Part shown: in pieces, positions 10,095 to 24,620 of the stretch | Position numbering within the stretch: position 1 is the first letter of the stretch | Layout of the letters: every line of letters starts with the position of its first letter | DNA from: Eledone cirrhosa | Lineage: Eukaryota | DNA: 64,000 nucleotides | Reading direction: 5' to 3' | Assembly: GCA_964016885.1 (NCBI GenBank) | Contig: OZ024747.1 | Coordinates: 75,330,001 to 75,394,000, forward strand | The notes under the pieces: model-generated | Told to the model about the DNA's origin: nothing | Seen by the model: only the letters and a program-made list of their open reading frames with translations | Database searches by the model: none | Program-made: the position numbers and the translations under genes

Positions 10095-10227
10095 TTGCGC
10101 TGCCGCTACTACTGCGAAGATGCCAGCATGCTTGCCCTTTGCTTTGATCTGCTGCCTGCTGCTGCTGCTGCTGCTGCTGCCGACGCGTTGCACTGCGCGA
10201 TCGTTACAAATCAGTTTCTTTCTGCAG
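10095..10227 (+). promoter_or_regulatory. GC/CpG-rich, YGCY- and (CUG)n-rich intronic element upstream of the 42-nt candidate exon
   Basis: Abrupt GC-rich island in an AT-rich intron with a (CTG)n run at about 10149-10180; complementary to 24506-24559. Confidence 0.5.
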
Positions 10228-10269
10228 CGATGGATGGACTGAATTTTACCATACATCCTGATATTGCAC
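10228..10269 (+). CDS. Lar: Candidate 42-nt alternative mini-exon of Lar ([14 protein letters not shown])
   Basis: tttctttctgcag|CGATGGATGGACTGAATTTTACCATACATCCTGATATTGCAC|gtaatc; phase 1-1, open frame, protein-like composition, contains an N-F-T sequon. Confidence 0.6.
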
Positions 10270-13200
10270 GTAATCCAACTTGGGTTAACCAGTCCAGTCT
10301 TTGTCCATTGCCGTGTTTTTTTCCGAGTGATCCTCCTACTGTTTTCCTCCCTTTCTTTCCGATGGAACTATGCACATTTTATTTCAGTATTATCAGTAAA
10401 TGTTCGCGTACATGCATATAATATATATATATGTGTATATATATATACATATATATATACATATATATATATATATATATATATATATATATATATATAT
10501 ATATATATATATATATATATATACATATATATATATATATATATATATATATATGTGCATGTTTCAAGGGAAGAACTGTTTTGTTTTGTTTCTCTTTTTT
10601 TTTACCTCCTCCTCCTTCACCAATTCTACCTATTAATGAATAAATTTATTTTTTAATTAAATCTAAGAAAATATTTTCTAATTTACAATAATTAAGGCCT
10701 CAGAAAATGTTAGCCAAAAAATTAGAGTAGCTCTCCTGTGCCTGAGATAACACACTCCACATAAATGTATATACACCAAAACATGCAGTCTTGAGTACTT
10801 ATGTACACACGTACACACAAATGTAAATATACGTGTGTATATATATATGCATAAGTGTATGTATATATATATATATATATGTATCAGTATGCATGTGTGT
10901 ATATATATATATATACATATATATATATGTATGCATCCATGTGTATATATATGTATATGTGTGTGTATATATATATATGTATGCATGTGTATATATATAT
11001 GTATATACGTATGCATGTGCATATATATGTATATGTGTGTATATATATATATATATATATATATATATATATATGTGTGTGCGTGTGTAAATTATATGCA
11101 TATTCATGTGTGGATATACGTATGTGTTTGTGTGTTAGTTAAGTTCAACATTTTTGTTTTTGTATTTCTGTTGGGGGCTCGAATTTTATTTTGTGATGAA
11201 TTTATTTTAGTTCTAAAGTAACTATAGTTTAATTTTATTTAATACATTTTTGATAATATTTACCCTTCCATAAATGTGGGACTATTTTTTGGTTCTCTTT
11301 GGTTGTCATCTACTAAAATCCCCCTCCCCTCCCTTCTGTATTTTTTTCTAATTTCAAATATATAATTCTAGTTTTCTTGAGAAAACTCCCTATTAAATAC
11401 GGCTTTTTGAGAAAAATAAAAAAAATATTTCTTTGAATTCTCGTTAATTCATTTTCTTTTCCTTTTCTTTTATTTGTTAAGCAATATTCTTGTAATTCAT
11501 TGAATTATCGAAAATTCTATATCCAAATTTGTTTTTGGCACAAAATTTGGACCGCCACCCCTCTAAAAAATTATTATTTTAAAAATATTAAAAAAAATAT
11601 GAATAAAATTTTCAGAAAAATAACTATAAATAAAAGTAAATACAATGTGTATATTTTGGCTAAAACAAAACAAAGAAGTATATTTATGATGTTATGGGAT
11701 TTTTTTGTGTGATCCAGAGCTGTGCATAGTTCCTGAGGAAGTCTTCACAACTTTTATTTCATAAATTGTAGCCATTTTCCACCAAAATGCTTTTTTTCTT
11801 GTCATGCATATAGTTTTACTGAGATAACGTTGAAAAATTGTTATATTATATTTATAAAATTTTTATGAAATTCTAGCATAATTCGGGTGGGAGGAGCTGA
11901 AAGAAAATTTCTTCATTTCATAAGCTCTTATGCATTTCTATTATTTACCATAAATTTTTTTATTCAATACTTAAATTTAAGCAAAGAGTGTGATTGTTAT
12001 GTACATGAGTTTATATATGTATTTATGTATACATGGTTATCAACATATGCATGCATATGTTATGTGCCTTTATACATATATTCAGACATTACACATTAAT
12101 CATCAGAAAAAGGATTGTAAATGTCTTGAATTCAACTAACGATCTAACTTGATAACTAAAACTGATTGTTAATGAGAAAACAGCTAAATATTATTGTAGA
12201 CTAAATAATATCTTCTGATACCTCTATAGATTGTTAATTTAGCCTGTATCTATCCTTTTTCTGATTTATCTATCAGTTGTTATGTAACTTAACTCAATTG
12301 GTAATCTCTGCAATGAGAATCTAATTCTAATTATATGTAGAAGTTTGCTGGTATTAAATTGTTAACTAACAACATCTAGAATCAATCAGTGACAACAGTA
12401 AAATGGCTGCTTCACTGCCTTCTCCTACTGCATATATAATATTAATATTATTATTAATAATAATAAATAAAGCATAAATAAAAAATAACCTCACTGACAT
12501 GTGTGCTGAATTCAAAGATTAGTGAAGTTTAAGAGATTTAAATTGGCTTTTCACAAAGGTTTTGTGACTCTCTTATCTAACTGCTAGTGTGGAATGTTCA
12601 CCTAGTCATCTAAATGGTTATGATGAACATCCCTTGGTCTTTTTTTCATAAGTTCTCTTTCTTTCACCTTTTTTCTTGGTGATCAGATCTGTGTAGCATG
12701 TATATAACAAATATCTGACATTTAACATACTCCAATATGTTTATTTTACATTTACTCCAAGCTCTTCACTGTTTCTCTCTCTGTCTCCCTCCCATGCTCT
12801 ATCTCCTCCCCACCCTGGCAATCTCTATCTCTCAACCTTTAAGTTATCTTTTCACCATCTCAAATCTGTTCCTGATCTATTTTATTTACATATGACTACT
12901 ATACATTCCTTCTCCTTCATCTCAAATTCCTCCTACATTCAACAATTTGAGGTAGACAAGATGTAAATATCCATTTTGCTTCAAATTCTTGTTGCAACTA
13001 AACCCTCAAGCTCTGCGCCACCCCATCCCCCAATACTATATTCTTTTACTATTTTCATTCCATTGCTGTTACTGCTTCCCTTTTAGAGTAGGCTAACTTC
13101 TCCCTCCTCTTCCCCCCCCCCTCCTTCTTCTCCTCATCTTCTTCCAACACCCACAACAGATTGCTAGCTATATTAATGCGCTATTAATGGCTATATTTGT

Positions 13201-14295
13201 TGGGAATTACCCTATTGAAACTTAATTCTTTTACGATTTCTTCTAGATCATTTCAAGACCCGAGAAAAACAGAATTTCACTTTAATCTCACTTTGAGTAA
13301 AGAAATATTCTGGTTTATGCCTGAAAAATTTATTTCACATGTTTTCACTAAATACGCGCATTTGCTGTAAAAAAAAAAAAAATATTTATATATATTTTCC
13401 TGTAAATAATTTCAAATTAAGAAGACATAAGAATTTCTTGCATTCTGAAGAAATTGTCCCATCTAAGTTAAACTAGTTTATATCTATAATCAATACTGAT
13501 CTTGTCAATATTGGAAGTGCAGTATATTGGAGATTGGAAAATGGCGACCCTGTTTAACTTCTCTGCACAGCGTGTAATTCCTTATCTAACCATACTGGCA
13601 AGATCTCACAGTTATTCTCTATATATACATATAATATATACATATGTGTGTGTATATATATATGTATATAATGTATATATATATATTTATATGTATATAA
13701 TGTATATATATATATTTATATGTATATATGTATATGTATATACATAATATATTTATATATAATATATATATATGTATATATTTATATATATATTGATATA
13801 TATATATATATATGAGATATATATATGTATATATATATTTATATATATAAGTATATATATTTATATATATATATTGATATATATATATATATATATATAT
13901 ATATATATATATATTGATATATATATATATATATATATATATATTGATATATATATATATATATATATATTGATATATATATATATATTCACTTACTATA
14001 GGCTAAGAATCCTGTTACTGATATGTTTTCCAACTTGCCAATTTATATTATATTAACATTCAGCACACATGCAATTTAATAGAATGTTTAGAAAAAAAAA
14101 AAGAAGCAATATTTCGGTATTTTCATCCTAGTAATTTAATATGTATGTAAGGCATGATTGATAATTAATAAATGCGCGAGCGCAGCCTTTTTCTTTGCAA
14201 ATTATGTATAAACCATTGACCGCTAATTAACTCCACATCTTTTCTGTTCATTATACTAATCTTCGTTTTTCCTTTTTCCATCCATTGTCCTGCAG

Positions 14296-14301
14296 ATTCA
14301 G
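14296..14301 (+). CDS. Lar: Candidate 6-nt microexon of Lar (DS or HS depending on the upstream exon)
   Basis: Branch-point-like TACTAAT, long pyrimidine tract cttcgtttttcctttttccatccattgtcc, then tgcag|ATTCAG|gtgaga; strong acceptor and donor; phase 1-1. Confidence 0.72.
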
Positions 14302-23100: not shown

Positions 23101-23446
23101 ACTACATCTTTGAGGTCGGATTGTTATTTATTTCTGTATTTCTTTGGTTCTTCATATTCTAAAGAAATAATTAAGTTAAAAGCTAAATTAGAATTTCATA
23201 ATAATTATGATAGTAATAATAACAACAACAATTATAATAAGTACAATTATATATTAGTTAGTAACAACTTTCTTGCTGTTATTAATTGCAATATTTTCAA
23301 AACTATTCACACCTAATCAATAAATTTTCACTTAGATAAAAGTTAGTGTTTTGTTAATTAAATTTGTATTGTGTGAGTATAAGTGTTTATATATATATAT
23401 ATATATATATATATATATATATATATATATAGATATATATATATAT

Positions 23447-23507
23447 ATAGGAACGAGTAGGACCCCGACGGCTTGAGCTCAGTCATCGGGGTCCTACTCG
23501 TTTCTAT
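23447..23507. other. Near-perfect 27-bp-stem hairpin between (TA)n tracts
   Basis: ATAGGAACGAGTAGGACCCCGACGGCT-TGAGCTC-AGTCATCGGGGTCCTACTCGTTTCTAT; two G.U pairs and one A-C mismatch. Confidence 0.85.
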
Positions 23508-24474
23508 TACCCACTCTACTACCCTAAGTATTGAGTACTTTGGTGCGTTATGGTCCACCTGGTTCCTTACCACATTTCCTCCGTTATATATATATATATA
23601 TATATATATATATATATATATATATATAATAGAGACATATGAAACCATGTATAATATGTTTATGCATAATAAACATATATATAAGTTTTGCTATGGGTAA
23701 CAGATGCTGTGACATGATCACAGCTTAAAATACCTATAGTGAGAATTAAGTATGTTTATTTTGCACAAATATATTGTATATACTTTCATATAAGAGTTTG
23801 CATATGTGAATATATAGATATATATGCAAATAAATGTGGGTTTTTTTTTTATTCTGGTAATCTTAGAATGAAAGAATATTCCCTAAAAATTTTTAAATTC
23901 TTCACTTAAAATAGCAATTCCTTAAAAATTAAGATTAATTTTAAAATGGTTGTGTGCCTGTGTATGTGTATACCTATACATGTATAAATAAATGCGTGCA
24001 CACACGTATGTATGTTGATATGTCGCCATACATTTAGAAATGGGATGAATATATTCACATGAAATTAATGCACACATGTATGTATATGCATTTATATATG
24101 CGTGTGTGTGTGTGCATATTGTGTGACTATATACATTCTCAATAAAATAAATAATACAAATTTTAATATACATTTATAACTAAGTTTCCAGCTAGGCCAA
24201 CACTTCCCTATATATATAAATATATATATAAATATATATATATATATATATATAAATATATATATATATATATATATAAATATATATATATATATATATA
24301 AATATATATATATATATATATATATATATATATACTACATATCTAATTTAATGCAAGTTCCTTACTGAATCTACAAAATTGAACGCTAAGTATTTAACTT
24401 CAATAAATTATTATTGGTTTGGAAAATAGGATTCTTCTGTCTCATTTAAATTCTGCTGTTTGCTATGTTCATAG

Positions 24475-24620
24475 CTGTACTATTTGAGTGTACTTCGTGC
24501 CCCGCTTGCTGCGTTGTTGCGCGGCTATGGGTTGCAGCTGGTATCTTCCTAGCTAGCGCTCTGCTCTGCCAAACACGGAAGACCACCGCAGCGGTCTTCT
24601 TGCTGTTGCTGCTGCTACTA
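24475..24620 (+). promoter_or_regulatory. GC-rich YGCY-rich intronic island with alternative pairing elements; contains a weak 66-nt exon candidate
   Basis: GCTGGTATCTTC (24537-24548) is complementary to 10116-10127; local hairpin GAAGACC/GGTCTTC (24578-24599); catag|66 nt|gtatct is open in phase 1-1. Confidence 0.45.

Follow-up and report, generated by a model that had tools for sequence, protein, structure and literature searches.

In a stretch of 64,000 nucleotides from the Eledone cirrhosa genome (assembly GCA_964016885.1, contig OZ024747.1, positions 75,330,001 to 75,394,000 of the forward strand; hereafter the window, from whose first letter positions are counted), we find moderately significant complementarity between two GC-rich islands, A and B, in a microexon-bearing intron of the receptor phosphatase gene Lar, the pairing lying in a conserved microexon cluster and probably forming part of a small network of long-range helices. 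The reading we favour, which rests on predicted folding and which we place a little short of an even chance, is that the islands pair in Lar pre-mRNA as one of several helices that would bias the choice of microexons in the linker between two FN3 domains, through a loop-out like that of human ATE1. The sequences, the exons, the conservation of the 5′ block and the predicted energies and ranks reported below are direct observations. An earlier note, made from the letters alone, had proposed a duplex of this kind that loops out the microexons; this stands as the best single reading, given reciprocal best arms and a conserved 5′ block with further partners, although its significance is moderate and the loop-out is not obligatory.

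The host gene is octopod Lar, which encodes a receptor phosphatase of type IIa: Octopus Lar proteins match the exon at 32197-32481 with 98% identity, Lar exons map over ~320 kb of the genome from Ig2 through the C-terminus, and Pfam together with protein comparison recovers the Lar domain order of Ig, FN3, transmembrane and two PTP domains. The intron under study, 31.4 kb long and of phase 1, separates two FN3 exons on the plus strand, as are all exons, islands and helix arms placed below: it opens at the phase-1 donor of the exon at 566-767, which carries the second half of one FN3 repeat, and ends at the exon at 32197-32481, which carries the next. Within it lie a 33-nt phase-1 microexon (9779-9811), orthologous to an annotated 30-nt Octopus exon; a 42-nt phase-1 candidate exon (10228-10269), unannotated; and a 6-nt phase-1 microexon (14296-14301), at the place where Octopus isoforms have a two-residue insert.

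The islands contain the most GC-rich 100-nt windows of the whole stretch (61 and 60 GC, with a coding exon tying at 60), in keeping with the earlier note's description of them as the two most conspicuous, and all ten pairing segments that it listed are correctly placed and complementary as written. Both islands are single copy in the genome, and they are the only single-copy islands rich in UGC and CpG, other than simple repeats, in 464 kb around the gene; island B spans 24472-24622. On the sense strand, UGC outnumbers GCA by 20:3 in one island and 13:2 in the other, and YGCY motifs number 17 in 133 nt and 10 in 151 nt, compared with an intron-wide density of 7 per kb. We rejected an origin in a dispersed repeat family, both islands being single copy and none of 19 inspected sites, out of 20 others in the genome that carry a motif common to the islands, being island-like; most are microsatellite edges or unrelated sequence.

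The predicted duplex, H2, joins a 5′ arm, R2 (10104-10137, with a 12-bp core at 10116-10127), to a 3′ arm, R5 (24529-24558), by 27 base pairs, three of them G.U, at -38.0 kcal/mol, the 12-bp core by itself giving -19.2 kcal/mol; both values lie beyond the threshold for intronic complementarity within one gene (at least 10 nt, at or below -15 kcal/mol). The arms also lie outside repeats, each being single copy and the core falling in the sole GA/GCA-rich stretch of island A, outside its CUG run. When the islands are co-folded with their flanks, the core of H2 (10116-10137 with 24529-24548) pairs with a probability of 0.89-1.0, and after local structure is opened the net energy is -11.5 kcal/mol at 37 °C and -15.6 kcal/mol at 15 °C, loop closure not included; bringing together arms 14.4 kb apart would itself cost energy and use up much of this margin. 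The innermost helix of the earlier note, 10179-10187 with 24518-24525, does not survive, being lost to local hairpins once flanks are included (net +3.0 kcal/mol). H2 ends 7 nt before a branch-point-like pentamer (10144-10148, assigned by motif only), which it leaves uncovered; the pentamer and the (CUG)n tract that follows it, together 10144-10180, lie between H2 and the 42-nt acceptor, and at the inner end of the stem the UGC-rich segments of the two islands would stand side by side. Outer helices rich in A-U are predicted in the same register (10042-10074 with 24638-24688, probability 0.3-0.9), and their 5′ side, up to 10065, has no listed difference in three relatives. A local hairpin in island B (24577-24602) has a 5′ side that could pair with the 3′ arm of H2 instead.

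As to what the duplex encloses, the earlier note was right, with corrected coordinates, to place the 42-nt and 6-nt exons inside the loop, but it omitted the 33-nt exon, located 5′ of arm A and outside the H2 loop. It had also put the 3′ arm over the donor of a 66-nt candidate exon (24475-24540); R5 does cover the GT at 24541-24542, although that exon has no protein support and is found in none of 17 octopod Lar proteins.

The significance of H2 is moderate, and the result depends on the measure used. Against dinucleotide shuffles the outcome is mixed: in most tests 1-7% of shuffles reach the observed value, but the whole-island duplex is ordinary (reached by 130 of 500). Shuffles equalled the longest helix in 33 of 500 cases, the best helix in 25 of 500, the co-fold gain in 3 of 500, the best 45x45 window in 9 of 390 and 9 of 331, the extended arms in 7 and 18 of 404, and the reverse-complement alignment in 55 of 2000; real GC-rich windows matched the best 45x45 window in 2 of 124 and 0 of 124. 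Within the intron each arm has the other as its top-ranked partner (1 of 363 and 1 of 362 windows), and when the search from arm B is widened to 21,098 windows on both strands of 464 kb, arm A places third. When 151 unique intron windows are scanned all against all, H2 comes first with a tail-fit p of 0.0018, which becomes ~0.27 after intron-wide correction; given this value and no intron-wide pairing excess, the case for H2 depends on having singled out the two most unusual islands beforehand.

The 5′ arm lies in a conserved intronic block (9674-10387) that also holds R1, a further predicted arm described below, and the 33-nt and 42-nt exons, and whose comparison with relatives covers the sequence outside 10066-10190. 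Of four sequencing runs compared, three gave contigs and the fourth, of RNA type, gave none, which does not count as evidence of absence. Relatives’ contigs are 95-99% alike or better over 9674-10065 (three of three) and over 10191-10353/10387 (two of three), and one of them spans 10066-10190, the region of arm A, with 111 letters against 125 here; R1 has no listed difference in any of the three. Of sampled words from 9690-10400, a fraction of 0.71 recurs in a sequencing run under one other organism label, and fractions of 0.27-0.47 recur in runs under seven further labels, the segment being present in 20 of 24 rows. Orthologous introns sought in metagenome contigs gave no matches. We rejected local structure as the cause of the conservation, since shuffled versions of the block fold just as well (z -0.24 and +0.74), and likewise a known structured RNA, an Rfam scan giving only one weak tRNA-like match, outside the intron (35791-35860, 31.3 bits), which is probably the head of a short interspersed element.

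Microexon use at the junction is variable in annotated octopod proteins. Among the 17 examined (two proteins and 15 of a cluster's 27 members), six have both a 10-residue and a two-residue insert, six the 10-residue insert only, one the two-residue insert only and four neither; the inserts correspond here to the 33-nt and 6-nt exons, respectively. The 6-nt exon is the top-scoring short acceptor-donor pair in the intron, and the splice sites of the 33-nt exon rank 169 of 1412 (acceptor) and 33 of 1851 (donor). The latter exon is one codon longer here than in Octopus and in all three compared relatives, where it measures 30 nt, as annotated in Octopus. The 42-nt candidate measures 39 nt, through an in-frame loss of 3 nt, in both relatives that cover it, and the listed intronic indels are of 1, 2 and 1 nt, a difference that, as a single event, favours a real coding exon. 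Searches gave the candidate no protein support and none of the 17 proteins contains it, so that this conserved 42/39-nt exon appears to be absent from the annotated isoforms examined.

We then considered the block as a whole, tiling it in 34 windows and scanning the downstream intron against a null of 22,649 real windows from the surrounding 440 kb. Five of the 34, representing four helices, reach tail-fit p values of 0.004-0.017, where ~0.6 windows are expected; tail-fit values are used because a resampled p of 0/2000 reflects only the limited size of the null (rank floor ~0.016). H1, with 34 predicted pairs and -41.2 kcal/mol (p 0.007 and 0.011 in two windows), joins R1 (9713-9752), which lies 27-66 nt upstream of the 33-nt exon, to the single-copy R4 (21310-21347); H2 has p 0.015; H3 (18 bp, p 0.017) joins 10221-10238, over the 42-nt acceptor, to 14277-14296, over the 6-nt acceptor; and H4 (4+13 bp, p 0.004) joins 10357-10376 to the single-copy 11721-11741. 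Every distal arm of the four picks its own partner back as the best in the intron. H4 is nested in H3 and H3 in both H1 and H2, while H1 crosses H2. R2 and R4 have an 8-nt stretch in common and both can pair with R5, R4 more weakly (-26.4 kcal/mol, equalled by 25 and 28 of 6000 windows); values of 0/6000 for arm pairs overstate significance, the arm limits having been fitted to the helices. In one relative the 5′ arm of H4 carries four changes, two in an internal loop of 3 nt, one immediately beyond the end of the helix, and an A-to-G change that keeps a G.U with the partner of this genome, a small and one-sided observation. Scans of the antisense strand and of the upstream intron gave no window unbeaten by the null.

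Other pairings were set aside. Bidirectional pairing between R1 and R2 (-18.0 kcal/mol) is at chance level, being equalled by 314 and 782 of 6000 real windows. A perfect 14-bp helix of 12498-12511 with 14058-14071, inside H3 and beside H4, is equalled by 14 of the 22,649 null windows, and a perfect 12-bp helix of 28628-28639 with 32031-32042, ending ~155 nt before the next exon, by 6; neither is claimed. A 9904/29446 pairing dropped out under a 6-bp seed filter.

From these predictions we infer that the helices form, that they are under selection and that they affect splicing. H2 would loop out the 42-nt and 6-nt exons, leaving the 33-nt exon free and favouring the isoform with that exon only; H1 would loop out all three microexons and cover the stretch just upstream of the 33-nt acceptor, favouring the isoform with none. 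H3, helped by the nested H4, would mask the 42-nt and 6-nt acceptors together, and unpaired states would permit the other isoforms, so that the helices would shift isoform ratios with no single choice enforced. The products predicted for H1 and H2 are common among the annotated proteins (no microexon in 4 of 17, the 30-nt exon only in 6 of 17), while the presence of the 6-nt exon in 7 of 17 indicates that any loop-out is partial. Because transcription has to run 11-14 kb past the proximal arms before the distal ones are made, the balance would depend on temperature and on the rate of elongation.

The closest counterpart is human ATE1, in which R2 lies between two alternative exons and R5 30 kb downstream, and their pairing biases the isoform ratio, an effect established by compensatory mutation (Kalinina et al. 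2020, PMC7797038). The order of elements in Lar follows the same plan (33-nt exon, R2, 42-nt exon, 6-nt exon, R5): the 5′ arm lies between two alternative exons and the 3′ arm far downstream in the same intron, 14.4 kb away in place of 30 kb, the downstream exon is looped out, a second helix is crossed, and a ratio rather than exclusivity would be set. ATE1 differs in that its exons are mutually exclusive, its R1 and R4 selectors are similar, and all of its arms are conserved and proven by compensatory mutation (PMC7797038), whereas the Lar exons are unrelated microexons of 6-42 nt and the distal arms are known from one genome. [quoted passage not shown] By analogy, H2 may work as a PCCR or ATE1-type structure, a class defined by conservation of both arms, which is seen here only around one.

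The likeness to Dscam1 docking and selector sequences drawn in the earlier note is weak. As in Drosophila srp and Dscam1 (Yue et al. 2016, PMC4691838), Lar has an element placed between two alternative exons whose predicted partner lies downstream, and R5 could pair with either R2 (-38.0 kcal/mol) or R4 (-26.4 kcal/mol). The upstream pairing required in the model of those genes, R1 with R2, is at chance here, no strong competing pairing for arm A was found, and the exons are unrelated in sequence rather than tandem copies; nor are the 30-nt and 6-nt exons mutually exclusive, since they occur together in 6 of 17 proteins.

That co-occurrence, together with the 6-nt exon standing alone in one of the 17, belongs to a set of observations that weigh against the favoured reading. 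At the level of whole islands, the duplex energy is unexceptional among shuffles, as noted, and among real GC-rich windows 54 of 300 and 48 of 351 equal the co-fold gain. At the level of the arms, ~100 of 21,100 windows pair with arm A equally well or better, the best being simple purine-rich repeats; at least 71 other ungapped helices of the intron surpass the 12-bp helix in strength; and one site of 13 bp (18099-18111) forms a stronger pairing with the same 3′ arm than the 12-bp core does. The intron shows no general excess of pairing (7 of 151 windows at p<=0.05), and long-range inverted 12-mers in the gene are about as many as in reversed and complemented controls. In 21 control blocks, 16 of 614 windows were unbeaten by the null, and two blocks had three or more such windows; four of the 16 lie at tail p<=0.017, three of these in one retroelement-like block, the tail refit for controls being limited to unbeaten windows, with those beaten once left out. 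Six of the H3 pairs stem from the palindromic acceptor consensus. The comparison between species covers the flanks of arm A; both H2 arms and all distal arms are known from this genome alone, and for human conserved complementary regions the estimated false discovery rate is 10 to over 50% (PMC8052449).

The strongest alternative, which we regard as possible but less probable than pairing, is that the islands are independent protein-binding splicing elements, YGCY being of Muscleblind type and UGC of SRRM/eMIC type, with their complementarity a chance by-product. The density of YGCY motifs given above fits this view, which also explains more simply, to the detriment of pairing, why both islands have a UGC bias on the same strand; the CUG tract between the branch-point-like motif and the 42-nt acceptor occupies the position of microexon UGC enhancers (10.1101/2024.09.17.613571), YGCY clusters upstream and downstream of exons are associated with opposite effects (PMC2853123), and the intron-wide p is ~0.27 after correction. 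Against it, composition-preserving shuffles attain the observed pairing only in the small fractions given for most tests, the H2 core uses the GA/GCA-rich stretch of island A and not the CUG run, H1 and H4, neither of them UGC-rich, are left unexplained, and the distance from island B to the nearest annotated exon is 7.6 kb, that to the 6-nt exon 10 kb. Protein binding thus accounts for the composition of the islands without pairing, yet is compatible with it.

We consider it unlikely that island B instead represents an exon missing from the annotation, whether the 66-nt cassette or a last exon used alternatively (24475-24623), with the duplex a chance feature or a secondary mask. Read in the Lar frame, the sequence after the AG at 24473-24474 is open over 48 codons and runs through a hydrophobic tail to a stop at the 3′ edge of the island, the first 66 nt forming the cassette candidate; in 5000 block shuffles an equally long open frame arises in 7.9% and one with a hydrophobic tail in 0.36%, the latter figure being too low because CUG runs are hydrophobic in every frame and shuffling breaks the runs. 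Among the splice sites of the intron the acceptor is placed 78th of 1412 and the donor 40th of 1851, comparable to the real 33-nt exon, two UGC precede the acceptor, and a secreted isoform has been predicted for rat LAR (PMC2120354). Were it a last exon, Lar would end after the second FN3 position as a membrane-tethered protein with a hydrophobic tail and no phosphatase domains. Such an isoform is, however, found in none of the 17 octopod proteins, and its peptide is not in a collection of 15 billion, a single match elsewhere being to an unrelated repeat protein and no credible relative; third-position GC is 0.56, against 0.27-0.43 in four Lar exons, and the candidate's acceptor-donor pair is outscored by at least 24 others in the intron.

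A more elaborate form of the pairing model, in which strand exchange among four intronic elements over 15 kb selects the Lar microexons, seems to us equally improbable. Pairing of R1 with R4 would skip all three microexons, pairing of R2 with R5 would keep the 33-nt exon only and also hide a candidate terminal exon for a phosphatase-less, membrane-tethered Lar, and pairing of R4 with R5 would occupy both distal arms and set the cluster free. If such a switch exists, the ectodomain code of Lar in a cold-blooded animal would depend on temperature and elongation rate via RNA folding alone.

Less probable again is an RNA bridge, in which the helix forms and sets the UGC/YGCY cluster of island B beside the 42-nt exon's branch point and CUG tract, promoting inclusion of that exon. 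The 7-nt gap between H2 and the branch-point-like motif and the adjoining UGC-rich segments at the inner end of the stem suit this arrangement, and known bridges are of similar strength (ENAH, ~-19 kcal/mol; PMC8052449). Yet the 42-nt exon lies inside the loop, where exons tend toward lower inclusion (PMC8052449), and it occurs in no protein examined.

A-to-I editing is very abundant in coleoid cephalopods. That the duplex is mainly an ADAR editing substrate is nevertheless the least credible of the readings, for while human complementary regions below -30 kcal/mol are enriched in editing (PMC8052449) and H2 and H1 reach -38 and -41, the longest unbroken stretch of H2 is 12 bp and no H2 adenosine lies in a coding microexon or its splice sites.

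Returning to microexon choice by long-range pairing, such pairing is a proven form of splicing control in flies and humans, and the set of 17-34-bp predicted helices around three microexons offers a directly testable handle on the regulation of Lar microexons. In vertebrates the LAR mini-exons determine synaptic partner binding, and a review terms their regulation unknown (PMC8711739). Those mini-exons, meA-D, similarly give short ectodomain inserts in the same receptor family; they sit in Ig2, between Ig2 and Ig3, in FN5 and near D1, and the octopod microexons in an FN-FN linker (PMC8711739). Our literature search, with subscription papers and preprint supplements outside its scope, found no long-range RNA splicing structure in a cephalopod or Lar-family gene and nothing on this locus; the text of a cross-bilaterian splicing preprint (10.64898/2026.09.05.749416), as far as it was accessible, has nothing on the Lar locus, and its supplements may list these exons.

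Several observations concern other exons of the gene. In the conserved block, a 27-nt acceptor-donor pair (10035-10061) has an in-frame UAG and a weak donor (rank 422 of 1851); judged by its sequence, it could be a stop-containing exon that editing of the UAG would open, which is speculation. We rejected island A as a signal-peptide first exon: one of its frames resembles a signal peptide, but its in-phase donors are poor and the frame stops inside the 42-nt exon, and the annotated internal first exon of Lar, itself not CUG-rich, is found 69 kb upstream of the window. The latter exon (L009:782-1171) has its own signal peptide and an FN3 repeat and is absent from long octopod isoforms; short Lar isoforms of this form are annotated in Octopus and two gastropods. 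Gastropod Lar proteins (P0045 and P0051) carry a different, four-residue insert at the same FN-FN junction, so that the linker appears to have acquired microexons more than once. The FN3 repeat encoded at 42555-42863 is missing from some mollusc isoforms (P0009, P0050 and P0059), and this exon is therefore likely to be alternative too.

Two repeats in the intron complete the picture: a repeated element ~1 kb before island B contains a perfect 22-bp inverted repeat with a 17-nt loop (23447-23507), and a 37-bp minisatellite of 54.6 copies, 95% alike, occupies 5913-7933.

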